Made by a program: the position numbers and the translations under genes. From positions 12,087,725 through 12,151,724 of the forward strand of contig NC_089285.1 of the NCBI RefSeq assembly GCF_963678975.1: 64,000 nucleotides of DNA, in the 5' to 3' direction. The stretch comes from Dysidea avara (Eukaryota). The notes under the pieces are model-generated. The model made no database searches. It was not told the DNA's origin and worked only from the letters and a program-made list of their open reading frames with translations. Position 1 is the first letter of the stretch, and every line of letters begins with the position of its first letter. Of this stretch, positions 1,321-40,300 are shown in pieces.

Positions 1321-2640
1321 TTCTAGCTGATCTTTCTACAGGGTGATTTGTTTGTAGCTGAATTTTCTACAGGGTGACTTGTTTGCAGCTGAACTCTCTA
1401 CATGGTGGTTTCTTTGTAGCTGAAATCTCTACAAAGTGAATTCTTCTGGCTGATCTTTCTACAGGGTGATTTGTTTGTAGCTGAACTTTATACAAGGAAA
1501 CTTCTTCTAACTGATGTCTGTACAGGGTGAATTGTTTGTAGCTGAACTGTCTACAAGGTAACTTCTTCTAGCTGATCTCTCTACAGGGTAATTTGTTTGT
1601 AGCTGAATTCTGTACAGGTGATTTGTTTGCAGCTGAACTCTTTACAAAATGGTTTCTTTGTAGCTGAACTCTCTATAAGGTAACTTCTTCTAGCTGATCT
1701 TTCTACGGGGCGATTTGTTTGTAACTGAATTTTCTACAGGGTGATTTGTTTGCAGCTGAATTCTCTACATGGTGGTTTCTTTGTTGCTGAACTCTCTACA
1801 AGGTGAATTCTTCTAGCTGATCTCTCTACAGGGTGATTTGTTTGTAGCTGATCTCTCTACAAGGTGATTAGTTTGTAGCTGATCTCTCTGCAGGTTGATT
1901 TGTTTGTAGGTGAACTCTCTACAGGGTGATTTGTTTCTAGCTGATCTCTCTACAGGGTGATTTGTTTCTAGCTGAACTCTCTATAAGGTGATTTGTTTGT
2001 AGCTGATCTCTCTGCAGGTTGATTTGTTTGTAGCTGAACTCTCTACAAGGTGATTTACTTGTAGCTGAACTCCTTACATTGTGTCTAGTTTCTAGCTGAT
2101 GTCTCTACAGGGTGATTTATTTTGTAGTTGAACTCTCTACAGGGTGATTTGTTTCTAGTTTATCTCTCTACAGGTTGATTTGTGCGTAACTGATCTCTCT
2201 ACAAGCTGATTTGTTTGTAGCTGATCTCTCTGCAGGTTGATTTGTTTGTAGCTGATCTCTCTACAAGTTGATTGGTTTGTTGCTAATCGCTCTAAAGGTT
2301 GATTTGTTTGTAGCTGAACTCTCTGCAAAGTGTTTTGTTTGTAGCTGATCTCTCTACAGGGTAATTTGTTTGTAGCTGAACTCTCTCCACAGTGACTTGT
2401 GTATAGCTGAATTCTCTAGAGAGTGACTTAATTGTAGCTGAACTCTCTACAGGGTGCATGACTTGTTTATAGCTGAACTCTCTTCAGTGTGACTTGTAAT
2501 GTTCTGAATCTCTACAGTGATATATTTGTAGCTTAACTCTCCACAGGGTGACTTGCTTCTTGCTGAACTGTCTATAAGATTAACTGTTTGCAGCTGAACT
2601 CCCTACAGAATAACTTGTAATGTAATAGAATTCTATAATG
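1321..2640. repeat. Tandem satellite, same 31-bp family as 1-250, degenerating toward its 3' end
   Basis: About 40 head-to-tail units of ...TCTACAGGGTGATTTGTTTGTAGCTGA... Confidence 0.9.
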
Positions 2641-2805
2641 GAGTAAATAAATTAGCTGAATGCTCTATTAGGGTGACTGTTCTATTAGAGTATCTCGATC
2701 TCGCATTTGCTACACGGAGTTGACTTTCGAATAATAATTCAGTGGTTTGTAATCCGATTCTTCTATACTACTGCAAGGACTTTCTATGAAGATTATTCCA
2801 GCTAA

Positions 2806-3028
2806 GGTAAATGCGGGTATTTCCGGACAGCGTACAATTCCGGACACTTTGGTACCTTTATCAAGCTAGCCGAGGAACGAAACAACGGATTGCCTTGAAA
2901 TTTCTGCTGTGAATAGCTATTCTTATAGGGATTATAAAAATCGAAAAGTGTGTTCTAGTTGATTCATTCTTGGGTGCTATACACGAAGTGTCCGGAATTG
3001 TGCGCTGTCCGGAAATACCCGCATTTAC
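2806..3028. repeat. Near-perfect 44-bp inverted repeat (GGTAAATGCGGGTATTTCCGGACAGCGTACAATTCCGGACACTT and its reverse complement) separated by about 135 bp
   Basis: Read directly from the sequence with one mismatch. The flanking region 3045-3270 also has two about 35-bp direct repeats (..AAGCGGTTTRCCYWSTRGCGTGA..). Confidence 0.8.
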
Positions 3029-4794
3029 CTTATACACCGATTTTCAGCTCATTGCTCTAAGCGGTTTGCCTACTGGCGTGAAAACTAATACTTTTTTATT
3101 CATAAAAATCAATCGCGTAATTGTGACACAGGTTCGGTTTTGTGTCATATCTCCGTGGTCTTTATCTCGATTCCTTTCAAACCACCAAAAGGCACTCCTA
3201 CGATGTTTGCGCCATCTACATAGCAATTTTCAACTCATTCCATGAAGCGGTTTACCCTGTAGGCGTGACAACAAATCGATCTTGTTTTACGCAAATAATC
3301 GGTCATAACTCCTGAACCATTTATCGGATTTGCACCAAATTTGATGCTAGGATTCGCCTTTGGACTCCCTTTCTGCGTGCCAAATTTCAAGGCGATCGGA
3401 GTACGCGTTTGCGTTTTATAGCAATTTATGCAAGCGTGCGAAAACACGAAGAAGAAAACGAAGAAAAAAATTGAAACTTTGGCAGCTCGTATGAGTCGTA
3501 TCTCGGAAATGGCTGGAGCGATTTCCTTCACATTCGAAATGTAGACTCCTCTGGCTGGTAGGAAACCCTGTAGCAAATTTGGTTCCAATAGGATAAGGGA
3601 TCACCAAGATACAAAGGTGTGCAAATGACGTTTGCTTTCTTTCTGTAAATATACTCACGGTGTGGAGCGCCGGCTTCTTGGGCCGCACGACATACCGTGT
3701 GTCTTGATATTAGAATTATAATAACAATAATAATTATTATTATTACTAGGACCGCACTACATACAAAACCAAGTACATGTATCAACATGACAACCTAACA
3801 CCAGAGCAAGGCATAGACAGTGTGTATCTACCACACTGTTTACTGAAGAGAATAAAACACGTAACAATACATGACTGTTAGACTACTCTATTAAAGTATA
3901 TTGATCTGTGCAAATTTGAAAGCTGGACACACAGAGCTAAACAGGCAATTAAGTGTGTGTTCTTATTGACTGACTGCTCTATTAGAGTATCTCTACTATG
4001 CAATGCAACAAACTTACTTCCACCCTTCTTACAACTGTAATTTTAAAGATTCGTGCAATCAGCAGTACTGCTCTTTCTTTTAAGTCATGAAGGTCACACA
4101 TACCCTACATTATTAGAATATTTACAAAAACACATGGCAGCTTTGTAAGGTGGCATGCAATGATTAATTTTACAGTGAATGTACAACTGCAGATAGGCTG
4201 ATTTGATATTGAGTATATACATGGGTAGCGCGAAACTATGTGGCTATGAACTAAGCAAGGGGTCAGTCACATTCTGAAATTTTGTACAAGTCTTTTAAAA
4301 TTAATTAGAAATTAGAAATTTTGGTCTGAATTTTGAAAGTTTTGGCCTAAATCTTTTCATTAGCGCATGCCCCGCTATTGTCCTGTCCCACTTTTGGAAG
4401 AGCCCTGAGCTGCTGACAAGTTTTTCTTAAACTTTTCCTACTTATTGCAAACACTTGTAACGATGAAACACTCATTTTTAGGGATGTGGCGATTATGCTG
4501 GCATAATTTCAGGCAATATAGGTATAGTTATGCTAACCAGTTTGTGGTGTTTATCATAGTAAAGTTTTAACAATAGGAAAATCTGCAGATTGGCGATTGC
4601 ACAATTCCATTTAAGAAGATCAAGATACTCTAATAGAGCAGTCGCTGAATATTATTTACTCTAATAAAGCAGTCACATTGAAATGAAATACTCTAATACA
4701 GCAACCAGCTAAAGAATTCAAGACTACTTGAAGCTTAAACACATCAATGAATATGGTCTGATACAGCAATAAGAGCCAATTATGGTGGCATAAT

Positions 4795-5130
4795 TTTGGG
4801 AATAATGGGCAATTCAGGGGAGGATCCAGACTTTCAAAAGGGAGTTCTACTCTGGAATTGCAACTTCAGTCTACTGTAAGTCAAAGACCAAAGAACAAAA
4901 AAATGTCTAATCTGCTCACAATAGCTGCCCCTCACCATAGATTCCCTCAACAACTATATTTCCTTATTTGTATACTACATAATAACTTGCTACACTGCAT
5001 GCTCCTCTTAAAAATACTGCGACTGCTTTATTAGAGTATCTCCAGTGAGAGGCTCTTTCAAAAGGGGGGTTCCATGGAACCCTCCCCCCCCCCCCCCCTC
5101 CTGGATCCGCCCTGCAATTCTCAAAAGCAT
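4795..5130. repeat. Dispersed repeat family A (SINE/MITE-like). It ends with the 20-bp dispersed motif and a G-run/palindrome/C-run (GGGGGGTTCCATGGAACCCTCCCCCCC) followed by CCTGGATCCGCCCTG
   Basis: Homologous copies at 8096-8470 and 8625-9020, with partial or reversed copies at 28380-28560 and 29215-29285. Confidence 0.7.
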
Positions 5131-7168
5131 AATAGGTGACCTTGTGAGTGCTCAAAAGCATAATGCTCAATTTTTGGAACATGATAGCCTTATGTCTACT
5201 TAATTTCTCTACATAAAACTGTTACCCCAGCATTTTTATACATAATAGGCACCTGTAAAAATAATTATCTTATGACAGCTATTATAGCTACTTATAAAGG
5301 TTTCAGTTGCATTTCTAAAGGCCTAAATTTCTAAGTGAAATACATTGTTGGAGAGTGCTGTGAAAGATTTCTACTGTAGGTACATAATTATAGCTTGCTA
5401 TATTGATTGAACGTGCTCCAGCCCCTTTAAAAAGTTTGTATCTACCCACAGTAAAGAATTGTGTATCTTTAGGAAACATGTGCATATTTTTCTTTGCTAA
5501 ACCAAATTGTACTGGTCATTTTTGATTAAATTCTGAACCAAGAGTTAATAATAGTGGAGGGCCTGAACAATAAGCATAGAAACACCCAGAGTTGATTTAA
5601 CCCTTTGTAGTAATCAATCGTGCATGCATATAACTATGTATACCCTTCAGTGCTCGAAATAGTGTCAAAATATTGCACTGTCAAAAGGTCTGGACAAAGT
5701 CACCAATGACCTGTAATTAATTATGGTTGTCCAGTCACACTCAAAACGTACTTCAGCATGCAAATTCTAGGGGGTCTGGGGGCATTCCCACCAGGAAATT
5801 TTAAAAATTACAACTTCTGAGATCACATCTGGAAGCATTTTGAAAGGGTAACTTTAATCTGTGAATCACTTACATACTTTTTACCTTATACAGATATACA
5901 ATTAATTTTATTATTGATAGGAAACAAGAATTGATCAGTTTGTGTTATTGTACAATGACAATTTGTATCTTACATGTAGCTAATATCACAACAAAATCAA
6001 AATGTTACAATTATTGAATGTATTACTACACTGCTTTTAACTGATATTTACAGTAAGTGAAACAGTCATACCTATAGCTAAGTCAGTATTTCAAGCTCAC
6101 AAATAACTCCTGTTCCTAAGCTTAGTGATTTAGCAATTAATTGTATAAGCAATATTCATTTTTCTTTTAATCTTCAACTTTGCAGCCTCGCTATGGTTGG
6201 CTTGAGCCATTGCCCTTGCAATTGGTGCATATTTTATCAAGCTACTGGCTGCCTCCTTCCATATGCCATTGCTCACTTGTGCATATCAGTTGCTGAATGA
6301 TCCTTGAAGGTCAAAGCACGAATATTGGTTGTGCCTTCAATAAGGGCTGGCCTATAGCTAGTTTTGCATCAAGCAGAGCTTAACATTAAATTTAAAGCAA
6401 ACTTCACATTTTAGCATGGTCACATACTCCCGATCACCAGACACTGCTTCAAACCGCAACCATCGTGTTTACTATTTTCAGACACCCACTTCTCCACCAT
6501 TTCCTTTGCTACCACACGCTTATTAGTGCTTCTGCAACCATTGCTAGCAGTATCTTCACTGGCTCTCTTTTGTCTGGACAATTAGTCCAAATAAAATTAA
6601 ATAGAAACTTATTCAGTGCATTGTCCGGATAATTTCCGGTTGTCAAACATTATTTCAAGCACTAATTACCTTTCTCTATATAGGTTGCATGAAGGATGTA
6701 AAGAGCACTGATACAAATTTATATAGCTCTTTAAATTTTGATCTAGCTCTCCTTAGTCAAGAAGAAACAGAAACTGAATACCTATATACAGTGAGGCAGA
6801 ACACAAAAGCAAATGCAGGTTTAATTGATGATTCATGTGGTATTACATACATAGACAGTGCAGAATGGTAATGAAGGTTTCATCTTATGCAGAAAAAAAA
6901 CTATTAGAAAAATTAATTGTGGACAATTAACTGACAGGATAAATAATTAATGTGCTATGCTCTTTTCTAAAAGTACAATTTCTTGACTATGCATGGAACC
7001 AGTGGCATTGCAGACATGGAAGTAGCAGAGCAGGTAGTTGTAAAACCAGGAACAGAGAAATAGGAAATGGGAAACAAGAAGTGGGTGGAAATGGAATTCC
7101 TTCACTGCAGAACACTCTTCATTTGTAAATTGAAGGGGTAGCAGAGCACAGGTTTTCTCACAACTTAA

Positions 7169-8093
7169 GCAGCAGTGACTGCTGTATTAGAGTGTTTGCA
7201 ACTCAATTGCTAAAAAATCATAATATAACTGTACTAACAGAATGGCAATTGTATAATGTCTTGGTACAATTTCAAATCTATCAATTAGATAAAGTCCAGA
7301 GAAGTGCAGCCAATTTCATTACAAATTACTTTTCTCTATTCAGTAGTGTAACCAGCATGCTGGACCACCTAACCTGCATGGCCAACTTCAGAACAAAAGA
7401 AGAAAATGTCTTAAGCTACTTATGCTCTTTAAATTGATTCACAGTCTTGTTGAAGTCTCATCAATCACTCTAACTCCCTTAACCTCATGTACTTGCGGTC
7501 ACTCTTGTCATTATGCCATCAGTCCACCAATTAGAACTGAAACATATTTACATTCTTTCTTACCTTTAGCAGTAAAATTATGGAATAATCTACCTCAATC
7601 ACTAATGATGTTGATGATTTATACAAGAACTTGAACTCTACTTATACCCCTTGCACCCCTGTATGATTATCTGTGTTTGTAAACTCTTGAGGTTTTACAC
7701 ACAATAGTCAAATTTCTGATGGCGGATAATGCATATCACCCTAGGTGGTATCAGTGGCTTAAATTGAAGTGACAGCTCTATCACAGTATGATCAGAGTAT
7801 TATTACAAGTTTAACGTCATTATGAGCTTCTGAGAAATTAATATACATGTCAGCCTGAATTTAAGCCTTAATGTCATTTGAGTTTGTAGTAGCAGTGCAT
7901 TTGCTAGCTGACTATAATTATATTCTATTAGAGCAGTCACTTCAGCTTAAGCCACTACCACCAGGATGATCTACATTATCCACCATCAGAATTGACCCAA
8001 GACATTATACAATTGCCATTCTGTTAGTACAGTTAATATGCTTATGATTTTTTAGCAATTGAGTTGCAAAATACTCTAATACAACAGTCACTG
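7169..8093. mobile_element. Non-autonomous DNA transposon (MITE-like, about 925 bp) with about 90-bp terminal inverted repeats that begin AGCAGTGACTGYTGTATTAGAGT
   Basis: 7170-7265 is the reverse complement of 7975-8093. The TIR tip contains the dispersed 20-bp motif. Confidence 0.65.
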
Positions 8094-8095
8094 CT

Positions 8096-8470
8096 ACTTC
8101 AGCCCAGGGCCATCCAGAGAAATTAAGGGACCCAAGAATAAAGTGGGGCCCCAGAGGCAAGGAGGGTTCCACTCTGAATACACAACATCAGCCTAGCTAT
8201 AAATCAAAGACCAAAAAAAAAGAAACAAAGGTTGTTACATGCTGACAACGGCAATAACTGCCCTTACCAACTATGTATCCTTATTTAAAAGCTTGTTACA
8301 CTGCTCCTCTAATGTATACTGTGACTGCACTATTAGAGTATCAAGATCTTTTAAACAAGTATTCAAGGGGCCCTTCATCAATGGGGACCCCTTTTAGGCT
8401 GAGGCCTGGAGCAAAATGTCGCAGTTTCCCCCTCCCCCCCATGTGCGGCCCTGCCTCAGCCACCAAAGTC
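8096..8470. repeat. Repeat family A copy
   Basis: Aligns to 4795-5130 and 8625-9020 (…GGTTCCACTCTGAATMCACAACWTCAGCCTARCT…AAGACCAAAAA…). Confidence 0.7.
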
Positions 8471-10222: not shown

Positions 10223-11153
10223 TTGTAAATTTTGGATTGAGGCGTAGCCTGTACATCCGTGTAACAAACAAGAATGTTATCATACCATAGCCCCCAAAAT
10301 TAGCCAAATAGTGCACACTTTTTCATAAAAGCATGAAACTTTCCACATAAATAGTACTCCTCATGACATAAATTTTTTGATATAGTGCCATTGCAGATAT
10401 GAACTCGTGGCCACTTTTGCACAGAAATTTGAGCATTTCTGCCTCTGCCAATACTTGACATGGTAAAACATGGTACCAAAGTAAAGATATTGTTAAACAA
10501 AACACTTTGTTTTTATTTGGTTTTTATTTAAAATTAATAAGTAATTCCATTTTGAAGTTGTGATCGCTTTTATTAGCTACAGATTCTTTGAGTTTACCTG
10601 CCCTTGGGAAGTAAATTATCCATGGGGAGGTAAATTATCTCAAAATTCATGTGTAATATAAATGATAAATTACCTATTAAGTTTAAAAAAAACTAAGTTG
10701 TTTTGTGCAATAAGATCTATATTTTGGTACCATATTTTAACAAGTTAATTAACACCTCAGGAAAATAAAGACAGAAATGATCGAATTTCTGTGCAAAAAA
10801 TGGCCATAAATGTCACCAAAGGTCAAATCTGCGATGGCACTATATCAAAAACTTATATCATGAGGCGTACTACTTATGTGGAAGTTGCTTTTATGAAACT
10901 GCATGAATTTTTCGTTGTGGCACTATACTATACAGGGCATCGAAATGATAAACCAAAAGCCATAGTAGGTACTTTCCGCATTGCTAGTGTACCATAGCAA
11001 TGATTATGTGGTATGTCCACTACCTGTACTTCAATTTTAGCATTACACTTTACAAGTGTAAGATAGATTAGTGTAGGGATCATAAAATAAAAAGCAATAA
11101 ACAAGGGAAGTCATCTACATCAGTAGCTTTATATAGAGTTCAGCCATACACAG

Positions 11154-14100
11154 CAGCATTGAAACCGGGTCACTACTGCTGACCCGGACCCGGATAGCAA
11201 TCTGGGTCAGACCCGGATGTGACCTGGATTAATTAAAGCCAAGGCGTGCGATAAGAGCTATGTTTCGGGTAGTCTCGAGCAAGCGAGACGTACAAGACTA
11301 CATTTTTAGCGTTTGATTCGTGTTGAGTAAACAAGTAGTTATGTGATAATTAAGCCGGTAAGTTTATAAATTTAAAATCAATCAGTGGGTTTTGCATGGT
11401 TCCACATAGTGTGGCTTCGTGCATACCTAGTATTACAATTTCCCGATATATTAAAGTGGGTGTGGCTCACAAAAGTACTTATCCTATTGCAAGACTAGAC
11501 TATATACAACTCGAATAATAATCGATAAGTGAGCATGGCTCCACGTAAGCTTGCAGACAGCAACGAACACAGTTTCATGCTACAGACTGCACTTACTAAT
11601 AAATGGGCATGGTTGAGCATATGTTTGTAACGTGATTAGTGGGCGTGGCTCACGAAAGAGCTACGCGACTAATGTTTTATAAGTTTCCACGTCGTCAAAC
11701 GAACTGCTCACGTGATCCAATCCAGTGGACAATTTGTAAACAGGCGGATGACCTGGAAAATTTGACCCAATCCGGTTTCAACACTGATTTCCACATCGTC
11801 AAATTAATTCATTTGTGTTACACGTGTTCCAATCCAGGTCAGACCCGGATATTCAATAAAGCTGATCTTATTAGGCACCAGCCTATTATGCTTTTAATTT
11901 GGCCTATTATGCTATGCTGCAGTGCTCAAAATTTTTCCTCATAATTATGCTCACAATTTTTGCCACAGTTCCAATGTTTTGTTACTTTCTATGGATAATG
12001 ATAAACTTTGGCATATTAACAACTGGTTAAATGTAAAAAGTACTTGTGCATTAAGAATTTGGCTGCATTGTAAACTATAATAACAGTGATGTCAGATAAC
12101 TACTTAATGCCATATAAGTGACATCGACTGTTCTATTATTGTAAATCAACCTTTTTCTGTGGCATGCATTTTTGCTTACAGTATGACAATTATTCTGCCT
12201 ATTATGCTAACATTATGCCTGATCCTTTCAGGCACTTATTATGCTCAAAATTATGCCAGCATAATAGGCTGGTGCCTAGATCTTATGCATTACTTAGTTT
12301 CAACCCTGATTGTAGTTGTGTGAGGCAAGCAAGAACTTCAAATTGTACAATGACATGGACTGCAAGTACAATGAGTTTTTTCTGCATTTGATAAAGTTAA
12401 AACAATTGAGAAACAAGTTAATGTACAATGGCAGTAAATTAAAATTTATATAATTTAACAGTACAGTAATATTCTGTTCTACAGCTGCTTGTTTAGTATT
12501 ATATTATTTTTTCCTGACAGCCTCATAGTACACAACCGAAGACTCAACTGCATCATCCTTCAGTCTGTTTCTGTCCTTACATGCAATTCTTCCAGCGCCA
12601 CTAAAATGTCTTTCCGATTCCGCACTAGCTGCTGGTATAACTAAAAGCTGCCTAGCTAGACAAACAGGAAAACTATACCTTTGTTCACCCCACCACAACA
12701 ACGGATCAAATATGCTCCGAATGCATGAGCCTGTGTCAAATAGACACCAGTAATTGAGCCATAGCGACTAAGCTCTTCATTTACTTCTGCTGTGGACTTT
12801 TTCCTTGGTTCATCACCAGCAGCATTTCTAAATTCAGCCAATGGGTCATGCTTTAATCTCTTACTAGTGACTGCTTCTATTTCCTCCTCAAGTTCCTCAA
12901 CATCACTATCTTCAGGCTCTTTTGGTGGGTTAACATGCGCTTTTGCAATGGCCATGGCATTCTCTTTAATAATACCAGCTGCCTGTTCTGATAAACTGTG
13001 TCGCTCCTCTGCATCCCTTACAAATGAAAATCCTTAAAGAGAGGTAGGAGGTAGCAACATGTAAAATAGTTATATCCTCCCACAACTTAGTATCTAATGC
13101 TGATACTAAATTTCTCTTCAAAATACGTCCTGCTGCAGTGTCTGAAGCAGATAAATCATACCAAAAATTCCCCAGTTTATAAAATGAGGGCAAAACAAAC
13201 TGGAGGGTGGATACAAAAGAATATTCCAGAATGTCTTCAGCCTTTTCTAAAATTTGTAGCACTTCTTCAAGTAGCAATTTTTCTACTGCAGCTACCAGGT
13301 CTTCACGTCTTCACGTCTTTTATCCCTTAACACTGGCTTTAATGCCTCATAGCTTTTGAATATAGAGCGGAACTTATTAATCAAACTATGCCACGGTCTT
13401 GTTTTACCACCAGCTTTCAGTGTAGCTGGTAAGTTGTACTGGATTCCACCAGATTTTTTTACAAATTTTACTAGACTATTTGCACAGTCATCAAGCTCTT
13501 TTAGCTCTTGACTCTCTGCACATGATGCATCCCATGCAGTGTTTATCGATGTTGACGAACAGTGAAATGCACAATTAACATGGCACTTAGACTTTGTGGC
13601 AGCTACCATATTTGACCCTTTGTCTGTTGTGCATGGGGTATTTTCTGCATCAGGGCCTGCGTCGTCCAAAACCTGACCCAGTGCAACTTGAATGCGGTCT
13701 GCAGTCTTATTCTCAGAAAAACATTTACATGCATACATAGCATGCTTGAGGGACCATATTCTGTTGTTAGGAGCTGATTCCTCCACCAAAAAAAGGTAAC
13801 ATCGAGGTAGGAGCATGACACAACATTATCGGACCACAAATCTGTCACAACAGAAACCACACCTTACTCAACAGACTCTTAATGGTGTCCTGTATTTGGG
13901 GTAGCTTGTTAACAATATCTTTGCACACTGAGCCGTCCAACTATAAACTCAGAAGCCGGTTCACAACCATGAGATGCACCCAACTCCATAAAAGATTGAG
14001 AAAACCCTTTAATGCTTCTTGTTCTACAAACCTATAAGGCAAGTGTGCAGCAGCAACAAGAGTAGCAGTCTTCTCACGAATAGCCTTCCTTGTTCCCTCC

Positions 14101-15050
14101 CCAACTTTCTTTCCTGAGCACATAACAAAGCTATCCAATGTTTTAAAACAAGGCCTATTAGTTGCTTTGCTACTTGTGCTGGAGCTGCTACTGTTTTTGG
14201 AACTGCTGACAGCACTGCTAAAGCTACTGCTTAAGCTAGTGCTGCTACTAGTGCTATCACTCTCGCTGGTAGTGGTAGTACTATCACTTCAGCATGAAGC
14301 ACTAGCATGAGCAGGCAAGCATCACTTCATATTTTTCGTACCCAAAGACCTTTCCTCTCCACTCACCTTTGTTTTATAAAGGATACACACCTTACACACA
14401 CGGCAACATGCGACTCCAAACACCTCGTCATTACTTGAAGGATTTAACACTACTCTAAACTGCTCCCACGCTCTGCTTCCTTTCGAGTTCTTCTTCAGAA
14501 CGTAGTCACCATCAATCACCCGTCTAGGGAGTTAAGTCTTCATTGTCACCATCAAGCACAATTAAATCGTCACTTTCCATATTGCTGCAAAGCACGAGGC
14601 GTAACGTTATATTAGGAACATTACATTAACGTGCACGTGATCAAATCCAAAATCCAGCCAGATAATTTTATATCCAGGTCTGACCCAGTTGACCTGGACA
14701 AAACGTGACCCGGATGACCTGACCCGGCTGACTCGTACAATAATCGATTAGTGGGCATGGCTCTACATAAGCTTGCAGACAGCAACGGACACAGTTTTTT
14801 GTGCTACAGACTGCACTTACTAATAAATGGGCATGGCTGAGCATATGTTGTAATGTGATGTGGGCGTGGCTCACAAAAGAGCTGCACGACTAGCGTTAAT
14901 AAGTTTCCATGTCATCAAACTAACAATATCATTTCTCACGTGATCCAATCCGGGTTAGACCCAGATAATTTGTAAACCGGGTTGAACCCGGATGACCCAG
15001 AGAAAATGTGACCCGGTTGACCCAGATGACCCAACCCAGTTTCAACGCTG
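11154..15050 (-). mobile_element. hAT-superfamily DNA transposon, apparently complete at both termini (about 3.9 kb) but with a degenerate transposase
   Basis: 17-bp TIRs CAGCRTTGAAACYGGGT at 11154-11170 and (reverse complement) 15034-15050. Perfect 8-bp target-site duplication ATACACAG at 11146-11153 and 15051-15058. Subterminal GACCCGGATGAC-type repeats. About 330-bp internal direct repeats at 11500-11800 and 14730-15060. The - strand ORFs carry a BED-finger-like N-terminus (14322-14519) and the hAT C-terminal dimerisation signature ...SERHFSGAGRIACKDRNRL.. (12504-12701). Confidence 0.85.
12504..14519 (-). pseudogene. hAT transposase, fragmented across at least 6 ORFs in different frames (frameshifts or stops, or unrecognised introns)
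   Basis: ORF-track pieces 14322-14519, 13941-14215, 13292-13860, 12966-13277, 12656-12955 and 12504-12701. The last contains the hAT dimerisation motif. Confidence 0.7.
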
Positions 15051-15762
15051 ATACACAGCCTGCCAATAGTGTAGCCATTTAATCGTAAATTTCTTCATTT
15101 TTCCTTATACTTATATTTTTGTTTAACATGATTTATGATTGGTGAATCAATGCATACTGCATCAAAGGAAAGAATAGCACCAGCCAGACATGTTAACTGA
15201 GTGACTGAACACATGTCTGACTGAAAGCAAGGTGGCCATTCTTCCTATTATTACACCTATTATACAGCATTACAAGCAAAGAACAGTATGATATGAGAAG
15301 CCTCTCTGCAATCAATTCAGTTACTATGGAAATGGTGACTGAACACACTAAATAGTACTGAAAAGTGGCCATTCCACTTTGTTTTCAATTATTTTCCACC
15401 TGTTATACAGCATTACAAATAAGAAAAGCATGTTTGTAACCAATCCAGTCATTATGGACGTTACAGATGATTTTCGTTACAGTCAGTTGTACTGAAGCTA
15501 TAATAACATGTTACTGTGATGAATCAGCACCTATGTGGTGGTGGGGAAAGAAATGGGACACAAAGACAGACAAAAGTAAGTTCATGATGTATGCACTGTA
15601 ACTTCTGTGATTGGCAACCATAGACGGGTTGTGCTCAGTTGAAAGTATCAGTCAATATTCAGCTAGCAATTTTTTTATTTTTATTTTTATTTTTTTTTTA
15701 TGATAATCATTGCATTAGTATTATATAGAATAGTTATAACTATTACTTAACAAAAGATAAAG

Positions 15763-16336
15763 TCAGTCAAATGAGCTAATCCTACCCTCTGCACAAACAA
15801 GATCAATAGCTGCAGACTCTTTAAAGCTAAAGCGATGGTAGGAAGATCTAGAACCTCTCAAACAAGTGATGGCTGCACGAAGTAGTGAAAAACTCAGTTT
15901 ACATCTTAACCAGTGCAGGGTCATGCTGTAAGACTGTCCATTTTTTCTGACAGCAGAGTGGCTATTCTCTTGTACACTACTGTGGCCAGGGGTCCCATGC
16001 CTCCAGTACATGAAAACACTATGGGAGAGAATGTCCCATGCTCCACCTCACGGATCCTTTCTTCATATTTCCTCTTCTTCTCTAGCTCCGCACGCCTGTA
16101 ACACTGGTGTAAAGACACTGAAGAGTGTGTGGGAGCAAAAGGATTAAACACCTTTACATCAAAGTATGCCTTCTGACCGCGTTCCCAAAAACCATTGGCC
16201 ACAACATCAAGACGGGCCCCATCCTCAACAGAATTGTACAACTTTCAGTGGAGCAATTCACAGAAACTTGTTGGAAAGGTTTGGGGTTGCTCTGTAGGCA
16301 TTTTTGGACTTGAATATGCCTAACCAACCATGTCAA
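15763..16336 (-). pseudogene. Transposable-element-derived ORF fragments (...ARLDVVANGFWERGQKAYFDVKVFNPFAPT...EKKRKYEERIREVEHGTFSPIVFSCTGGMG...)
   Basis: From recollection only, this resembles a repeat-encoded protein family widespread in invertebrate genomes. It is split over three frames. Confidence 0.4.
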
Positions 16337-20019: not shown

Positions 20020-20960
20020 ACACACATGCATACATACATACATACATACCGTATTGCCTTGAATTATGGCCCAGCCATTTATTTCTTTCAAGCAATTTTT
20101 ACCCCGGCTACTAAACAAGACCGGCAACTATACGGGACCAGCGTTTATATACCTGATCAGAGTTCATGAGTCAACTTCATACCTTGGTGTTGTACTCTCC
20201 AGGACTCTCCTTGATGTTTCCCTCAGCATATTTCACAGATTCAAACTTAAAAGGAACTCTATAAAACGTTCTTCGCTTCATTGTTTATACCACCACCCGG
20301 AATTGTTAAAAATAATGACTGCACTAGACATTTATTTGAGACCCAGCGCATATTCGAGACCCAGCGTTTATTTTTGTTATGACGCTGTATACCCCCAGTG
20401 ACTAAACAGGACCAGGCGTTATACAAGACTAGTCATAATTCAAGGCAATACGGTACATACATACATACATACATACATACATACATACATACATACATAC
20501 ATACATACATACATACATACATACATACATACCCAGTGTGTATTCGAGACCCGGCATTTATTTTATGATGCTGTATACCCCCAGTGACTAAACAGGACCA
20601 GGCGTTATACAAGACTAGTCATAATTCAAGGCAATACGGTACATACATACATACATACATACATACATACATACATACATACATACATACATACATACAT
20701 ACATACATACATACATACATACATACATACATACATACATACATACATACATACATACATACATACATACATACCCAGCGTGTATTCAAGACCCGGCATT
20801 TATTTTATGATGCTGTATACCCCCAGTGACTATACAGGACCAGGCGTTATACGAGACCGGTCATAATTCAAGGCAATACGGTGCATACATACATACATAC
20901 GTACGTACGTACGTACGTACATACATACATACATACATACATACATACGTACATACATAC
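20020..20960. repeat. Minisatellite: about 240-bp unit repeated 3x, each carrying a (TACA)n/(TACATACA)n tract of 75-130 bp, plus an inverted partial unit at 20024-20160
   Basis: The unit ...CCCAGTGACTAAACAGGACCAGGCGTTATACAAGACTAGTCATAATTCAAGGCAATACGG(TACA)n ACCCAGYGTGTATTCRAGACCCGGCATTTATTTTATGATGCTGTATACC repeats at 20397, 20580 and 20820. Confidence 0.85.
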
Positions 20961-29740: not shown

Positions 29741-32700
29741 ATGAGCAGGAGGCCAGACGAATCCAAGAACCTGTACCGTATTCCACCGTATTATTACATC
29801 CATGTATTGGACCAGACTACCAATGTGACCCGAATTGAGATTGGTCCACGGACCTTCATCAGGCAAGATAATGAAAAGGTCATCGTTGGACCGGAAAAGA
29901 TGATCACGTGTCCTCCCCGGCACTACTGTGTTATAGAGAACCCGGTTGTCAGGGGTGATGACAAGAAACCAGTGATCGATAAGTCTGGGCAGATTAAGCT
30001 GCGTCATGCAGATCAGGAAATACGCTTGGCACAGGACCCATTCCCATTGTACCCAGGAGAGGTATTGAAGCAAGTGGTGACCCCGCTGAAGGTTGTGCAA
30101 GCCAACTCAGCACTGCGGCTTAGAGCTATTCTTGATTTTGAGTCGGACAGTGGAGAAAAGAGAGTTGCAGGAGATGAGTGGCTGTTTGAGGGACCAGGTA
30201 CGGTGTGTATGTGTGCATGATGCATATGACACAATGTGCAGATGGGCACACCAGTAAGGAGGTAAATAATCTGGTATTTAATGTAATGCAACTAAACTGC
30301 AATAAGTTCACAGCAACAAACCCTTTCTGAAACAATTTGGGACCCTCACATAGTTTCATATTACTTTTACTACCCTTTAAGGGATAATTGTATTCACTTG
30401 TACAAGGTTGTTTATTGGCTTTGGAGTAATTGATGCTAGCCAGTTCTGTTTGATGCACACCATTGTTACACAGGTACATACATCCCTTGTAAGGAGGTGG
30501 TGGTGGATGAAACAATTAGAGCCACAGTGATCAAGCCCAACCAGGCTATCAAGCTAAGAGCAAGGAAGGAAACATTGGTAAGAGGCATTACCATACTTAT
30601 AGTATATCTGTTATCTGCAAATCACCATGTGCCAAGTCCAAGGGTGTTTGGTTTAACATTGTGGTACTATAGTTTCATGTTCTTACCGTTTGTTGGTAGG
30701 ATCGTGATAACAACCCACGTGTTACTGGTGAAGAATGGCTGGTAAAGAAAGTCGGTGCCTACCTTCCTGGAGCTTATGAAGAGGTTGTGGATGTGGTGGA
30801 TGCCTATGTGTTGACTGACAAGGTTTGTGTTAACTTTGTTTGTAATTTCCTAAGCCGTTCAGTTCTGTTATAACTTTGCCTTTTATGATTTCAGGGTGAA
30901 TGTTATTTATGCTTTATTTATTGCCCACCATCTTTATGTTAGGTTGCCCTACACATGAGAGCCTACAGAACATTCAAGGATGTTAAGGATGTGACGCGCA
31001 AGAATGGAGAAGAGTGGCTGATTAAAATGGCAGATACTGAGGCACACATTCCTGATGTATATGAAGAGGTATGTGGATTGCACATGCATGCACTATTACA
31101 TTATTTTATAGGTTTTTAATGTGTAAATGTTTCCAGGGCATGATATTTGATACTTGCCATTTACCGACGATTATTTTATAGGTTGTAGGAGTGGTCAATG
31201 TCACTACACTCACCAACAGACAGTATTGTGTCATCCTGGATCCAGTAGGGAAAGATGGCAAACCACAACTTGGCCAGAAGAAACTTGTCAAGGGAGAAAA
31301 GTCATTCTTCTTACAGCCGGGTGAACGGCTGGAGAAAGGAATACAAAATGTGTATGTACTGGGTGAGGATGAAGGAATTATCTTGAAAGCAAATGAAGCA
31401 TTCAAAGATCCTGAAAGTGTAAGATACTATATCCTCATAATACAGAAATGTCAACTAGGTACAGTGTAATCTCTCTTTAGAAACTTACTAGCAAAACAAT
31501 GATAGGGACAAACTGGCTTTATACAACAAGTTTGCATCTGAAAAGGCATATTACAACACCTAAAATCTTAGTCTCAAAAAGTGTCCAATATAGAAGAGAG
31601 GTTCCATTGATATATTCTTATCCGAATGACTATGTTCATTTTCATAACATTACTACTACCAATAATGTCTGTCACGCTGTGGTACATGTTAATAATCACT
31701 ATAGGGTACTGACTATCGTCCAGGAGATCGATGGATGATTCGAGGTCCACTTGAGTACATTCCACCTGTTAAGGTTGAGGTGGTCACCAAACGCAAGGCC
31801 ATTCCACTTGATGCCAACGAGGGTATCTACGTCCGTGATGTGAAGAGTGGAAAGGTGCGGGCCATCTGTGGCTCTACATACATGTTGACTCAAGATGAAG
31901 AGCAATGGGCCAAGGAACTACCCCCAGGTGTAGAGGAGTTACTAGCAGAAGGGAAAGACCCTTTAGCTGACCGATCAGATCGATGTAAGTTGACATGTGT
32001 ATATAGTATGTGTAATGAGAATAATTTTTGTGCAGCACGGACATCTGCCAACATAAAGAGAGAAAAGACCAAAGTTGTTTCTTTCCGAGTACCACACAAT
32101 GCAGCTGTACAGATCTATGACTACAAGGAAAAAACTGCTCGAGTTGTGTTTGGTCCTGAATTAGTGATGCTGCGACCAGATGAACAGTTTACACAACTTA
32201 GCCTGTCTGGTGGCAAGCCCAAGAGGCCGAACGTAATCAAGTCACTGTGCTTGTTGTTGGGACCCGACTTCTGTACTGATATCATCACCATAGAAACTGC
32301 AGATCATGCTCGACTACAACTGCAGCTTTCTTATAATTGGTGAGCGTTATATAAAATTGTGCATAACAGTAGTGGCTCTAAACTATTAGTATTTTCATAT
32401 TTTGTTTAATTTTTTAGGCATTTTGAGGTTGTTGATCGCAGCGATGTAAAGGATGCTGCTAAACTGTTCTCCGTACCAGACTTTGTTGGAGATGCTTGTA
32501 AAGCTATTGCCTCACGTGTGAGAGGAGCAGTAGCTGGTGTACAGTTTGATGACTTTCACAAGGTGCATATTAGTGAAGATGTTGTAACACCAGCAATGCA
32601 CATTAGAATATGCACATACTGTGCTGTGTACGTACACACGGCAGACTTGCTGTATTACATACATCTTTGACCTGCTGTTGTTACACGATCACAACTACTC

Positions 32701-34397
32701 AGCAACCTTTAGAGTATTCCTCGTGGTCAGTCAATTCCTCCAGACTATTCACCTTGTAAGATGGTGTACTATGTCTCTTGAGTAAAGGTGTGAGTACCTG
32801 AACCTCACCTGGTATGTTATGCCTGGATAGTTTACCATTACTTCCTCAGTTCCACTTTGACTTAGTAAGCAATGTAAAAGTTGTAAGGTAACAGTAACTG
32901 CAGGTGCCACTGACCTGCCACACAAACCATGTTCTTTATGCAGTTTTATGTGTACATACAAACACTTTCTATATATTCATAGAATTATACATGTTTTATT
33001 TTCTCTTCAGAACTCAGCCAGGATTATTCGTACATCTGTGTTTGGCCTGGATGATAACCAGAAAGTCCGCAATCGTTTTGAGTTCCCAGCTAACAACCTG
33101 GTGATCACCAGTATTGATATCCAGTCAGTGGAGCCAGTTGATCAGAGGACCAGGGATGCTCTGCAGAAGTCAGTACAATTGGCCATTGAGATCACCACAA
33201 ACTCTCAGGAAGCATCTGCTAGGTGAGAGCAGTCATTTTGAATTTGACAGTATAAATGTACAGAAATGTTACACAGTTCAGTAATGTTGTTGGATTGTTT
33301 GTGTTACTGTACACCATATTAATTATAGGCATGAAGCAGAGAGGTTGGAACAAGAGGCAAAGGGACGTCTAGAAAGACAGAAGATTATGGATGAAGCTGA
33401 GGCAGAGAGAGCAAGAAAGGAACTTCTTGAACTACAAGCACATAGGTCAGTACATCAGTTATCAGTGTTTCTTCTGTTCTGTTGATCCAAGTTTGAGCAT
33501 ATTGTCCACTTCCCTTCTATAATCATGCTCTGCAAGCTTGTGTGTAGCCAGAAAAAAAATTAGAATCTCTAATAAGCACACTGCTCATCTTGTATTTGCA
33601 CCGTTTCCCTCCTTGAACTCTATACCACACTTCTGTCCTTGGTGCAAAATTGATGTTTTAGATTCACATTGACATTAGTATTATTGTATCCATAGTGCTG
33701 CAGTGGAGTCTACCGGTCAGGCTAAGGCTGAGGCCCAGTCTCGTGCTGAGGCAGCTAAAATTGAGGGTGAGGCTGCTGTGGAACAAGCCAAGTTGAAGGC
33801 TGAAGCTTCAAAGATTGAGGCTGTAAGTTAAGCAGTGCTACAAGTGTGTTTACATACAGAGTGTGTGTTGTATTTAATATACACTACCTATACTAGTATA
33901 TTTGCTGACTTATTCTTCTGTTTACATTAGCAATCAGAGTTGGAAAGATTGACTCGGGCAAGAGAAGCAGAGACCAAGTATGTGAGAGAACAAAACGAGT
34001 TGGAGATTACAAAGGCCCGGGAGATGGCCAGTATTGAAACTGAGAAGTTCAACAATATGGTACAAGCCATTGGTGCTGACACCATCAGTGCCATAGCAAC
34101 CTCAGGCCCAGAAATGCAGGCAAGTTGTCGGTTCATTGTTGCATATACATGATTGCTAAACTACACCTAGACCACCTAACTATAGTATTCATGTACAGAC
34201 AAAAGGTGTTTATTCACAATTTTATTCACATGATACAAGTCACTGTTTTCTTGCAGGTCAAACTGTTACAGTCACTGGGTCTTCGTTCAACTCTGATCAC
34301 AGATGGTAGTAAACCAGTCAACCTGTTCACCACAGCACAAGGCCTATTAGGAGCAATTGGTAGTGGACCAGCTAACTCAGAGGAGGATGATGATTAG
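29741..34397 (+). CDS. MVP: Major vault protein, 13 coding exons, about 855 aa
   Basis: Strong homology to MVP over the whole length ([26 protein letters not shown]..., [172 protein letters not shown]). Exons: 29741-30197, 30474-30577, 30700-30822, 30943-31068, 31182-31418, 31705-31984, 32036-32339, 32418-32562, 33005-33222, 33329-33445, 33696-33822, 33931-34119, 34257-34397 (stop TAG). Phases are consistent. All introns are GT-AG except intron 12, which has a GC donor (GCAAGT at 34120). Confidence 0.95.
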
Positions 34398-34686
34398 GCA
34401 TTACTTGGAACTGACAAATACAATTGTTTTTGAAAAAGATTCTAGTTTATTTTTGTTTGTTTAAAGTAACTTTTTGATATGTATGAGTGAAAATTTTAAA
34501 TACTATAATTTTTTCTTACAATGTGAGCAGAATCTGTAGGTGCAAGTTGTTAGCACTTCTAAGTGGCTCAGAATGAGACAAACCATAGAGGACAAGACCA
34601 GTTCACACGAATGCAGACAAGTTAAACAATTGTAATGCACAACTGTTTTAAAATATATTAAAACAACACTGCTTTTTAAATAAACA

Positions 34687-35974: not shown

Positions 35975-37274
35975 CTAGTCAGTGAGACAATCAATTAGAT
36001 CTTGAAAGTCAGTCACAAACCAACTGGCATTATCCTTGACTTTTTGTCTGATGACAGTTCCTCCATAACCAATAAAAGCATCCTAAACAGAAAACAACAC
36101 ATTACAGAAAAGGTTTGTTATTACAATAAGAAGTGACAAAGTACCCACTGGGATCTCCTTGACAAACAAAGTAAGCAAACGTGACCCGCTGAGCCATTTT
36201 GCATATATATTCCTTGGATTCCACTTTATTGTTTCTCTGTTATCTATAGTAACAAACTAAGAAGTGGACAGGCAAAGTTTCAGCCTTTTGTGATGAATAG
36301 TTTCGATGAAAGACAGTTGGAACAAGAGTAAACTTGATCTGTACAGCAACAATACAGCAAATAGATTACAGGCACTTATTTGATCGATCATAACTCATGA
36401 CTGAAACAAGCTAATCAGTCTGTTCACCATGAACCGGCACATCGATAAAGGTATAGTGTTTTCCATGCACGTCTCTGGTTGGACAAAGAAGGCAGCCATT
36501 CCAACAATGAAATGACAATGATAAACTTTATTTCTACCGCATTGTAAATAAGTGCCCATAACTCACATACTGTAGGTTGTACGAACACGAAACAAAGGCT
36601 TTTTCTTACTCCCCATGAACAGGAGAATCTGGTGGTGTATAGGTTTTATAGATTTGGGCTTTGTTTCAGTACATAAAGAAGTGATTAAAATGTAGGTAAG
36701 CTTTTTTAGCATGCATATTTTTACCAAGTTTATTTCTAAACTTTTTAATAGCAAAATGGAATTTCGCAAAAACAGCCAGTTTTCGCTCAGCGGGTAGCAA
36801 ATAGTTGAGGCTTTACTGTACGACACACAATATAAACCTAGTCACCAGTTTCTTAATTCAGCAACTGTATTTAGACACTTACAGCAGGTGGACAGGCCTC
36901 CAAATCAGTTGCTCCATCACCGATCATCACCACACTATGACAAGAAAAGCAGCGTGAGCAGAGTGGGGATTCTAATAAAATAAGTCAGTCAACTGCTGTG
37001 TGCAGCCTGCCCTGGACCCTTGTGTGTGTACCTGACTTTGGACCACAAACCAAATATACAGTGGAACCTCAGTTGTCCAAACCCCTTGGGAATATAGTCT
37101 GAAAAGTCCATATCTCTGAAATTGTATATAAAATATCAGTATTACTCAACTACCCTAATAGAATAGTCACTACTCTAATAGAGTATTCATTTCATAGTTC
37201 AGTTAACCAAGAATCTGGATAAGTGGGATCCAGAAAACTGAGGTTCTACTGTACGCTCTCCTCCAGTGTGCATG

Positions 37275-37352
<78 letters not shown>

Positions 37353-40300
37353 ATGTGTGTGTAGCAGGAGTGCAAACCACTCCAACAAGCAACCGGTAAA
37401 AACTTACACAGTCCATGTATGTTGTCCAGTTCTATAGGGCCAAATCCCAATACTACGTAAAGGCAAAGCAATTAAAACATTAAACAATGTATACTCGGTC
37501 ACTGTATAAGTAGTGGACATATGCCATTGGAGCATATCATTGAAATCCCCTGCACTGAAAAGCAAACACCAAAATACAACTTTTAACAGCATTGTATGGC
37601 TTTGTATACAATTGGTTTGAAAAAATTAGTATGCAATTCCAAGAGCTGGTCAGTTATTCTATCATACACATGCTTGATGGCTTTTTAGACCCTCATGCTG
37701 TTATTGAACATGTCCTTCTGTCTAGCAACTAAACTGGACACTACTAAACCACAAGAACTACCCTACAGGTGTAGGTGTATGTGTAATTGACCACACAAAT
37801 AAGCATGGTAGCATTATATCAGTACTTACCATTTGTAACCTTTCTCTTTCTTTAGCTTTTCAACTACAGCAGGTTTACCACCTGATCTACTTGTTGGCTC
37901 TTGATCATCAAAATGACTATAGCAACCTGAGCAATAAACAGATAGTGTAAATGCAATTGGGTGGACCAACACACACTACACTACACACACACTACACACA
38001 CACACAAAGACTTGTGGCTGCCGTTGCACACCTACCCAATGAACTAGCACTGGGACACCTGTGCACTACTCAGGTGCTAGGAGTCAGATCCTCCTGGGGC
38101 AGGCTGTGCCATGTCTTACAGATGAAGGGGCGGGTACCCGAAGTCCTTCAACTGCTATATGAGACATGGACAGTCGGCATGTACTTGACCAGTTTACATG
38201 GGTGGTACAGCTGGATGGACTGCTTTCCCAGTTGGCACCAGGCCACCAGGTCCCCTCATACAAATATTATGAACTCTTGATATGAGTAAAGTTTCTTGCT
38301 CAAGGAAACAACAACATCAAAGTGGCATAACTTGGAATCGATCTTGAAACCTTTCGATTACCAGACCGACACTCTAGCCGCTTGGCTATTATAATACTGT
38401 CCAAAAAGTAACTAGTGCATGATCATGCTTAACCCTTAAACCCACAAAACTGGATTTAAAATGTGATGTAACAAGGATTAAAATGACACCTACAGTTTTA
38501 CCCTAAGCTAAACGGTGAGGCCAAAACTAGCCATTTAAGTAACTTTTCAATAAAGAAACGTGCAAACCTTTTACATAGCTTTATAATATTACATCCATAA
38601 CTAGATGGTGGTTGTTCCTATCACCAAAGTTCCATTCAATTTGCCATTAAATTTGCCCTCAGGCCATATATGACTCTCATGTGAGTAAACCCACAATCAA
38701 AATTAAACACATGGCTAGAATTTTGACACACGGAGATGCGACTTCATACCAAGTAGGCCGTTGTAGTTACAGTGTTTATTTAGCCTTCTCCAAGTAGCCC
38801 AGTGAACAGAATTTTGTTGTTGTTGTAGGCTATAAGAATTAAGTTACCCCACCTACTATCGCCATGTGTGCCTAAACATGCATTTCCCAAAAGTCAAGAG
38901 TTAAAAAAGAACACTCTTCAAATTGCACCATAGATGCTACAGGACAGCCACATTAAGTAGTGTGTACTGTTCTTCATGAGTAACAGACTGGACAATAGTT
39001 GAAACTGAGCTGAAATGGCCACATATACTATATATTATCTTCAGCAAGTGCACATGTGTACAGTTACTTTCTTTCACTAAGGAACATCTGAGTAGTATAA
39101 TAATCATGAAAACATGTTATAAAAGTTAACAACATATTAAAAGTAACTAGTACTATTTACCTCTAAAAAGTAAGTTACATGGGACTAAAAGTAACATACA
39201 ATAGTTCCTTTTTTGAAGTAACTACCCCAACCCTGCCAAGAGGCACAAGGGTGGTGTGTACCAAGTGATGCCACCAGATGGCATCCTGTGCTTGAGGTGG
39301 CATCCTGTGCTTGGCACACAGTAATTCAACCTCATAATTGTTGTCAGCATTAGACAGCTATTTTGCACACACACACAAGCACTACACATACACAAGCACT
39401 ACACACCTTTGCTATCAAAGATTATCCTGTTTGCATACAGGTTATCCCTAGGTATATTCAAGTAGTCCATCACTGGCTCAATAACACTCCTAAATCCCCC
39501 AGATACCAGGTAAACATGAGTGCCCTTCTTACGAAGAAGATCAATAAGTTTCCTAGCAAAACAAGATACACACATTTCCACTACCACCTCGATTGAGACA
39601 TTTATAGCACTTGCAGAAGAAACCATTTTTTTTTAAATTCTACACATAAACTTACTCCACATTTGGAGATAATATCTCTTGTGGAGAATGCAGCTTAGAA
39701 AAGTCTTTGAGCTACACAAGAGAGAGTAATTACTGTACATGTACATTGGAGATGACCACAAACTTGAAAGCTACATACTACACAGGTAACAAACGGGACT
39801 ACATAGCGTACACACCCACACCTATTCTAAAGCTGACGTACAGCATGAATATGGTAAAATTGCAAACATGCCAACAGCACAAACAACACTGGTAGTAACA
39901 AATCAAACATAAACAACAAGGAATCAAGAGTATGCAAGCAATAGTTCACAATGCGTGGACCTACACCACTGTGTCACTAATACCCTTGATCGAAAAGAAA
40001 TTAATACTTAAAACTTCTGACATGAGACTATCGCTATTATTTTTTTGCTATGTGGCTTAGTACACTGGGAAAACTGGACTACAGCCTCTCCACTTTTATC
40101 CAGAGGAATCCACTTTCAAAATCGAAGTACTCTAATAGAGCAGTCAAGTGAGAAGGAACTAGATATCCCAGTAGCTATATGATGGAAACTGTTGAATTTT
40201 AGGGTGAAAATGGAATATTTTTAGACCATATGTATGACATTTACAAGTGTAGGATATGGCTTTAATATATTGCTATAGTCTGCAGCTTTTAGATATGTAT

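Follow-up and report, generated by a model that had tools for sequence, protein, structure and literature searches.

Transposons of the hAT superfamily are bounded by terminal inverted repeats (TIRs) of about 10–25 bp, which start with YARNG. Among the closest described systems, the Hermes element of Musca domestica, about 3 kb long, has 17-bp imperfect TIRs with two differing positions, dissimilar ends with subterminal repeats and an 8-bp target site duplication (TSD), and nTnnnnAn is the target pattern of hAT/Hermes insertions (PMC10368747). In the case of maize Ac/Ds, transposition can use the termini of different or nested elements (PMC4270019, PMC3744419). The present analysis deals with a related element found in a 64,000-nucleotide stretch of Dysidea avara DNA (assembly GCF_963678975.1, contig NC_089285.1, positions 12,087,725 to 12,151,724 of the forward strand). 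This whole stretch is called the window hereafter, and its own numbering is used throughout. The element spans 11154-15050 (3,897 bp). It is, with little room for doubt, one insertion of a Hermes/Ac-like hAT cut-and-paste transposon in a metazoan, which has decayed to a non-autonomous copy.

The limits of the element can be read directly in the sequence. Two identical copies of ATACACAG, at 11146-11153 on the left and 15051-15058 on the right (no strand being assigned to either), form a TSD that matches the nTnnnnAn pattern, and the pre-insertion site is predicted to have read GAGTTCAGCCATACACAGCCTGCCAATAG. The outer TIR at the transposase 3′ end (11154-11170, plus strand, CAGCATTGAAACCGGGT) aligns with the 3′ TIR of L008, an intact relative detailed below, which ends at 8139; the outer TIR at the transposase 5′ end (15034-15050, minus strand, CAGCGTTGAAACTGGGT) aligns with the outer 5′ TIR of L008 at 4540. 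An initial annotation of this DNA had already described a hAT element with a perfect 8-bp TSD and TIRs, and its termini are retained here; the two 17-bp TIRs are imperfect, agreeing at 15/17 positions when CAGCATTGAAACCGGGT is compared with the reverse complement of 15034-15050. They start with CAGCG at the 5′ end and CAGCA at the 3′ end, and those of the relatives with CAGCG, CAGGG or CAGAG. By our own calculation, chance would yield about 4e-4 instances per 64-kb window of an inverted repeat of 17 bp that has two mismatches or fewer, identical 8-mer flanks and a spacing within 5 kb. The degenerate TIR consensus (at most three mismatches) has six matches in the window, where 0.36 would be expected from shuffles, and four of these six lie inside the element. 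A TIR-like match at 34029 falls in an exon of MVP, the major vault protein gene.

All the coding signal of the element is on the minus strand, where the longest open reading frame (ORF) reaches 174 aa. The C-terminal piece, at 12504-12701, matches Pfam Dimer_Tnp_hAT (PF05699) with E = 9e-12 and 45 bits (cut-off 21.4), and the same domain is found in the related proteins P0001, P0002, P0003 and P0288 with E = 1e-15 to 1e-16. Comparison of the stitched conceptual protein with a large protein collection retrieved P0001 (704 aa, 68% identity, E = 6e-278), P0002 (702 aa, 57% identity) and P0003 (a fragment, 84% identity), and a tblastn search of the window with P0001 covers residues 20-701 over three frames. 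P0001 also matches the Hermes transposase chains (E = 2e-40), Hermes being the only match in the PDB, and P0001 has identical residues opposite D180, D248 and E572 of Hermes and opposite H268 in the CxxH motif. The catalytic motifs VTDLWSD, TTDKGSN and SAESERHFS can still be made out in the window, in different frames. Pfam DUF659, put forward earlier as a diagnostic domain, has no match in the window copy or in its relatives. Five features of hAT membership are assembled at this locus, namely an 8-bp TSD, TIRs, a dimerisation domain, a DDE core and iterated subterminal repeats; the uninterrupted transposase ORF of an autonomous element is missing from the window copy. The transposase superfamily itself is large and ordinary: when 1.84 billion representative proteins were scanned without a profile, 6,079 related clusters were retrieved at E <= 1e-3.

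Contigs of the relatives were fetched and yielded five further delimited elements of the same TIR family. The ORF is intact in L001 (1904-5180, 3,277 bp, TSD ACCCAAAG, ORF 2209-4323), in L003 (4860-7429, 2,570 bp, TSD GTGTGGTT, ORF 5001-7109) and in L008 (4540-8139, 3,600 bp, TSD GTAAAAAC, ORF 5001-7154, 717 aa), so that related copies with intact ORFs do exist in public assemblies. Only fragments are left in L004 (5560-7949, 2,390 bp, TSD matching at 7/8 positions; 485 aa, P0005) and in L005 (4931-7369, 2,439 bp, TSD ATATGTAC; 391 aa, P0007). The polarity is the same in all five relatives and in the window element: the end upstream of the ORF consists of the TIR and GGGTC-rich repeats, and the downstream end is of a distinct L type. 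The GGGTC/GACCC end repeats (GACCYRG) are kept in L001, L003, L004, L005 and L008, although the proteins of the relatives are only 55-68% identical. Two scans of metagenome data were negative, one of JGI metagenome contigs with a protein profile, the other for exact matches to the 28-nt L-end sequence.

The comparison with L008, which together with L002 comes from one public ENA assembly, is the decisive one. When a nested miniature inverted-repeat transposable element (MITE) is removed from the window copy, the two elements are colinear from TSD to TSD, with 92.2% identity over 3,430 aligned nt. Their flanks differ and their TSDs differ, which means that they are not the same locus seen in two assemblies. 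The homology to intact Hermes-like transposases of 702-717 aa and the existence of a colinear, intact L008 with its own TSD establish what had been proposed from the letters alone, a non-autonomous hAT copy. The window copy had also been recommended as a seed for a family consensus; L008 is better suited to this, since the window copy, at 92% identity to L008, is burdened with several deletions and with a foreign MITE of 407 bp.

The transposase pseudogene (12504-14580, minus strand) occupies all three minus-strand frames, with nine frame changes, and retains 94.8% nucleotide identity to the L008 ORF. The transposase was rightly described as broken: with respect to the intact 717-aa ORF of L008, nine frameshifting indels, five in-frame deletions and four premature stops are counted. 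The frameshifts are −11 near 14527, −1 near 14000, −2 near 13930, −13 near 13877, −1 near 13787, +8 at 13300-13315, −8 near 13042, −1 near 12722 and −1 near 12508. The stops fall at conserved sense codons, at 14322 (CGA>TGA), 14289, 13864 and 13034. The 12 nt coding for a conserved, His-bearing LDH(L/M) stretch are deleted in the window copy, and a stop comes after. The +8 frameshift is caused by a perfect 8-bp tandem duplication, in which TCTTCACG is read twice (13300-13315, no strand assigned); it is private to the window copy when compared with L001, L002 and L008, and could be due to replication slippage or be the footprint of an excised element with an 8-bp TSD. The 3′ untranslated region of the transposase gene (12309-12503, minus strand) can be aligned to 7199-7467 of L002 and 7155-7438 of L008; a stretch of 43 bp is missing from the window copy.

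A coding signal distributed over three frames could also be expected from an intact transposase split by introns, the frame changes then being exon boundaries and the copy autonomous, and some animal hAT transposases do have introns, such as BuT2 with five exons (PMC3942097). Such a gene structure is extremely unlikely here, because the relatives L008, L001 and L003 are single uninterrupted ORFs colinear with the window DNA, because the frame changes are indels of 1, 2, 8, 11 and 13 nt without intervening sequence, and because four conserved sense codons are now stops and the 12 nt for LDH(L/M) are missing. Long-read or assembly errors, in an element that would really be intact and autonomous, might account for at least one of the 1-nt deletions, which falls in a homopolymeric run of A near 13787. 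We give next to no weight to this explanation either, as the −11, −13, −8 and −2 lesions, the +8 duplication, the four substitution-type stops, the five in-frame deletions and the 407-bp MITE are not of the homopolymer type.

The substitution pattern agrees with a copy that has lost its function. The substitutions private to the window copy amount to about 3.1% and are distributed evenly over the codon positions (27:19:19), to which 15 private indels are added. The corresponding private counts are 13:14:23 in L002 and 8:8:25 in L008, and 94:64:264 along the deep branch to L001. From these counts, flat in the window and biased in L008 and on the L001 branch, it follows that the family evolved under purifying selection, whereas about 3% of neutral change has accumulated in the window copy since its split from L008 and L002. 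Over 12504-14580, C>T and G>A changes account for 25 of 50 substitutions private to the window copy, and deletions make up 14 of its 15 private indels. The decay of the pseudogene is consistent with a neutral process biased towards CpG deamination and deletion.

Domestication of hAT transposases is common in animals, and the locus could for this reason be taken for a hAT-derived host gene of the ZBED-like kind, not a transposon. The probability of this is close to nil, since the TIRs, the TSD and the subterminal repeats are kept, the ORF is destroyed and the codon-position counts just given show no bias. A decayed transposon copy thus remains the preferred reading. Its age is another matter. 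The insertion had been called recent, which is not demonstrable: about 3.1% of private substitutions have accumulated and, at a divergence of about 3%, the 16 bp of the TSD are expected to be untouched about 60% of the time, so that a perfect TSD says little on age and does not establish a recent insertion.

Repeated modules make up the two ends of the element. The window contains 11 copies of GACCCGG, where 0.6 would be expected, and 8/11 are inside the element. With the degenerate form GACCYRG, 20 sites are found inside the element (5.1 per kb) and 14 in the remaining 60 kb (0.23 per kb), an enrichment of about 22-fold; 18 of the 20 are confined to four end modules, which together represent 484 bp. 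The iterated subterminal GACCCGG motifs noticed at both ends in the initial annotation are thereby confirmed. Two stray GACCCGG copies, at 20548 and 20790, belong to a repeat unrelated to the hAT element, at 20340-20960, which consists of about three tandem units of about 240 bp, each with a long (TACA)n microsatellite.

On the left, the 3′-type (“L-type”) subterminal region (11154-11250, plus strand) has six GACCYRG motifs in 97 bp. The L-type end, made of the TIR, then GGGTCAC, then iterated TGACCC, is also found downstream of the transposase in L003, L004, L005 and L008. In the window it opens a built-in complete short element of 633 bp (11154-11786, plus strand), which comprises the L-end, a spacer, a B unit, an A unit and a TIR-like end. 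This module is without a TSD of its own, its flanks ATACACAG and ATTTCCAC being in disagreement. It is colinear throughout with the outer shell of L001 (1904-2133 and 4878-5180), with 76% identity over 480 nt, and it matches L008 7499-8139. It has the anatomy of a MITE, yet it belongs to the autonomous element itself, in L008 too. Its B and A units (11509-11786, plus strand) are an internal direct copy of the right-end module and end in the TIR-like CCGGTTTCAACACTG at 11770-11786. The identity between 11509-11786 and 14731-15050 is 79.5% over 288 columns (BLAST, aligned to 14731-15014), and the arms measure 278 and 320 bp: the internal direct repeats reported earlier are real, and their length of 330 bp has to be corrected.

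Next to this module lies a degenerate third end fragment (11787-11871 and 12279-12308, plus strand), split by the nested MITE and ending in the TIR-like ACTTAGTTTCAACCCTG (12292-12308). It is kept at 93-95% in L002 (7460-7546) and is present in L008 (7439-7498). On the other side of the coding region, the 5′ leader and an inner 5′ subterminal module, A′ (14581-14730, minus strand), contain five GACCYRG motifs and an inner TIR remnant, ACCCGG^CTG at 14722-14730, from which 8 bp are deleted; its L008 counterpart, CAGCGTTGAAACCGG at 4844, is intact. The outer 5′ end module (14731-15050, plus strand) comes last and aligns with L008 4540-4843; it consists of a B unit (14731-14934), then an A unit with four GACCYRG motifs and the outer TIR. 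The two further internal TIR copies (12292-12308 and the remnant at 14722-14730), like the nested 407-bp MITE, had been overlooked in the initial annotation.

The MITE-like anatomy of 11154-11786, which has both TIR types and is colinear with the L001 shell (a short element found free), and the presence of internal TIR copies at 11786 and 12308 could be explained by a one-off composite, in which a 633-bp element (11154-11786) would stand beside a separately inserted, truncated transposase element (11787-15050), or the two would have become linked at this locus through abortive gap repair or alternative transposition. Against this, the short element has no TSD of its own (ATACACAG versus ATTTCCAC), and it is the outer ends that share a perfect 8-mer. 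L008, an independent insertion (GTAAAAAC), shows the same module order and the same junctions, GTGGAAAT|CAG... and GTACGAGT|CAG..., and holds all the internal repeats and internal TIR copies of the window element, the latter including, besides the inner 5′ TIR at 4844, a degenerate CAGGGTTGAAACTAAG at 7439 (window 12308-12292) and a perfect CAGCGTTGAAACCGG at 7499 (window 11786-11770). Since L008 combines a different TSD and an intact ORF with the same modules, the modular architecture is the normal autonomous form and not a local rearrangement. Moreover, the repeat copies within the element are 76-83% identical and thus more diverged than the matching modules of the window and L008, which places the duplication before both insertions. 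A one-off composite, contradicted by the L008 architecture, ORF and TSD, is considered very improbable.

The intact form of the subfamily, to which the single decayed insertion in the window belongs, is therefore a 3.6-kb element. Its 5′ side consists of the outer TIR with A and B, then the inner TIR with A′, followed by the ORF; its 3′ side consists of the degenerate end fragment, a TIR with A and B, the spacer and a 3′ end of the other, dissimilar type. Every module of this form is present in the window copy, in the same order, and, both of its outer ends looking complete, the copy could be mobilisable in trans.

The nested MITE is unrelated to its host but also hAT-like. It covers 407 bp (11872-12278, no strand assigned) and has perfect 21-bp TIRs (21/21, TAGGCACCAGCCTATTATGCT) and an 8-bp TSD, GATCTTAT, at 11864-11871 and 12279-12286. 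A paralogous empty site is available, as L002 reads ...aaagctGAACTTATgcc... at this place and L008 is contiguous there. No long ORFs are found in the 407 bp. The element thus shows all that defines a MITE, being short and non-coding, with TIRs, a TSD and an empty site. A partial match to it is seen at window 4774-4806. Another MITE, of 401 bp, is found in L004 at 420-820; it has TIRs of a related type (CAGCGTTGCAAC...) and a TSD matching at 7/8 positions (GTATACAT versus TTATACAT), and in its subterminal motifs it is similar to the L005 element.

Other structural details were observed in the relatives. The L001 unit (1904-5180) is composite: an element with the intact 704-aa transposase (2134 to about 4877) is nested in reverse inside another, short one of about 530 bp. 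The inner element has a truncated 3′ TIR, and its TSD reads GACTATAA on one side and, partially, ...TATAA on the other. The whole unit is flanked by the perfect ACCCAAAG and has thus apparently been moved by the ends of the short element. The window copy preserves the uninterrupted target of this inner insertion. In L002, the copy at 1454-7546 starts exactly at the inner 5′ TIR (flank ATTCTTAC, unrelated), without the outer TIR, A and B module, and its coding region carries a 3.4-kb insertion (1944-5365) bounded by inverted ends of the TTCTATACCATATGC type. A repeat family of about 600 bp is present at window 3112-3709 and 44152-44676 and at L002 7542-8140, with 69-81% identity; in L002, it begins exactly where the hAT homology stops, and the L002 copy has thus been interrupted or truncated there.

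A mechanism can be proposed for the window family. The transposase, of about 717 aa, combines an RNase-H-like DDE core with the C-terminal hAT dimerisation domain, and would recognise the 17-bp TIRs together with the iterated GACCCGG/GGGTC repeats, probably through its N-terminal CCHC region; the subterminal repeats are accordingly putative transposase-binding sites. Excision, then insertion with an 8-bp staggered cut, would have left the duplicated ATACACAG. The modular ends may have arisen by earlier nesting of short elements, followed by the use of alternative ends. The structures of the L001 shell, of the L002 start at the inner TIR and of the 633-bp module suggest that the family may indeed use alternative ends. 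More specifically, the single 3′ end might pair with any of several 5′-type ends, to give a 0.64-kb MITE, a 3.3-kb element or the full 3.6-kb element; this remains a tentative proposal, rather doubtful as a whole. It fits with L002 starting at the inner TIR, with the L001 shell being a free short element, and with the capture, and apparent co-mobilisation, of an intact transposase-bearing element by this shell. If this were true, alternative ends would provide a built-in route to MITE birth and to reciprocal capture between MITEs and their autonomous partners.

Several points weigh against the interpretation as a Hermes/Ac-like insertion, or against parts of it. No second copy of the element was found in the 64-kb window, where a BLAST search with the element matched only its own internal repeats. 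The orthologous empty site was not obtained from the MVP loci L006 and L007, the non-coding sequence of which is unalignable, or 76% identical near the gene; their 10-kb flanks would not reach the insertion site. The assembly that contains L008 may or may not be from the species of the window. The BED finger to dimerisation domain protein of the initial annotation is secured at its C-terminal side by the Dimer_Tnp_hAT match, but Pfam zf-BED has no match in the window copy, in P0002 or in P0288; its best match, to the N-terminus of P0001 only (E = 0.004, 17.6 bits), is below the cut-off of 20.6. A CCHC pattern (CxxC...HxxxC) is present in the N-terminus of the intact relatives, and the DNA-binding domain would be assigned to this region by analogy. 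The placement in the Ac-type clade, as opposed to Buster or Tip100, finally, comes from the Hermes match and eight TSDs only, which suggest it: T is found at position 2 in 6/8 of the family TSDs and A at position 7 in 6/8, and the central TA in 0/8. The central TA is a target feature of Buster elements.

The element is located upstream of a gene with several exons, that of the major vault protein (29741-34400, plus strand), at a distance of about 14.7 kb; the Pfam domains Vault_3, Vault_4 and MVP_shoulder are recognised in this gene. The closest relatives of this vault protein are metagenome-derived proteins with 97-98% identity, those of named animals being at most 67% identical. An Rfam scan of the whole window gave no RNA family. 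About 0.9 kb downstream of the element, at 15921-16241 on the minus strand, a 106-aa ORF (...FDVKVFNPFAPT...GGMGPLATVVYKRIA...) looks like a fragment of another mobile-element protein, as judged from its sequence; it has no Pfam match at E <= 0.01. A dinucleotide microsatellite at 37266-37362 also matches a repeat in L007.

In terms of annotation, 11154-15050 is a fully delimited hAT insertion, to be masked as a repeat and not retained as a gene. It supplies the termini, the target preference and the subterminal motif of an animal hAT family that is apparently uncurated, of which putatively active copies (L008, L001 and L003) had gone unnoticed in public metagenome assemblies. This kind of element is thoroughly known, and the modular ends with a built-in short element are a minor curiosity. 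Ends of this type, with internal TIRs that look functional, may nevertheless offer a natural system to study the choice of hAT ends and the origin of MITEs.

When compared with known systems, the window element resembles Hermes, with which it shares transposase homology, TIRs differing at two positions, an 8-bp nTnnnnAn TSD, a size of about 3 kb, and a pair of unlike ends, a few hundred bp long and rich in short subterminal repeats. The differences are also clear. In the aligned core, the proteins are only about 25-30% identical; the subterminal motif is GACCCGG/GGGTC in the window family and AAG(T/C) in Hermes, and the N-terminus of the window family stays below the Pfam zf-BED threshold. Unlike Hermes, the window family has an entire end module, TIR included, in additional copies inside the element, and the window copy is dead.

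The MITE family Mar of Drosophila is reportedly derived from hAT elements. The 407-bp element at 11872-12278 and the 401-bp element at L004 420-820 resemble such hAT-derived MITEs by their hAT-type TIRs and 8-bp TSDs, whereas the 633-bp module differs from them in that it is not a separate insertion, but is built into an autonomous element. As in maize Ac/Ds, an autonomous element coexists with non-autonomous derivatives that keep both ends, the TSD has 8 bp and subterminal repeats are present, which in Ac/Ds are of a hexamer type and needed in cis. The alternative-end (macrotransposon or composite) mechanism of Ac/Ds would likewise account for the modular ends of the window family and for the start of L002 at the inner TIR. 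In contrast to Ac/Ds, the host is an animal, no chromosomal rearrangements were seen, and alternative ends are deduced here only from the structures of L001, L002 and L008.

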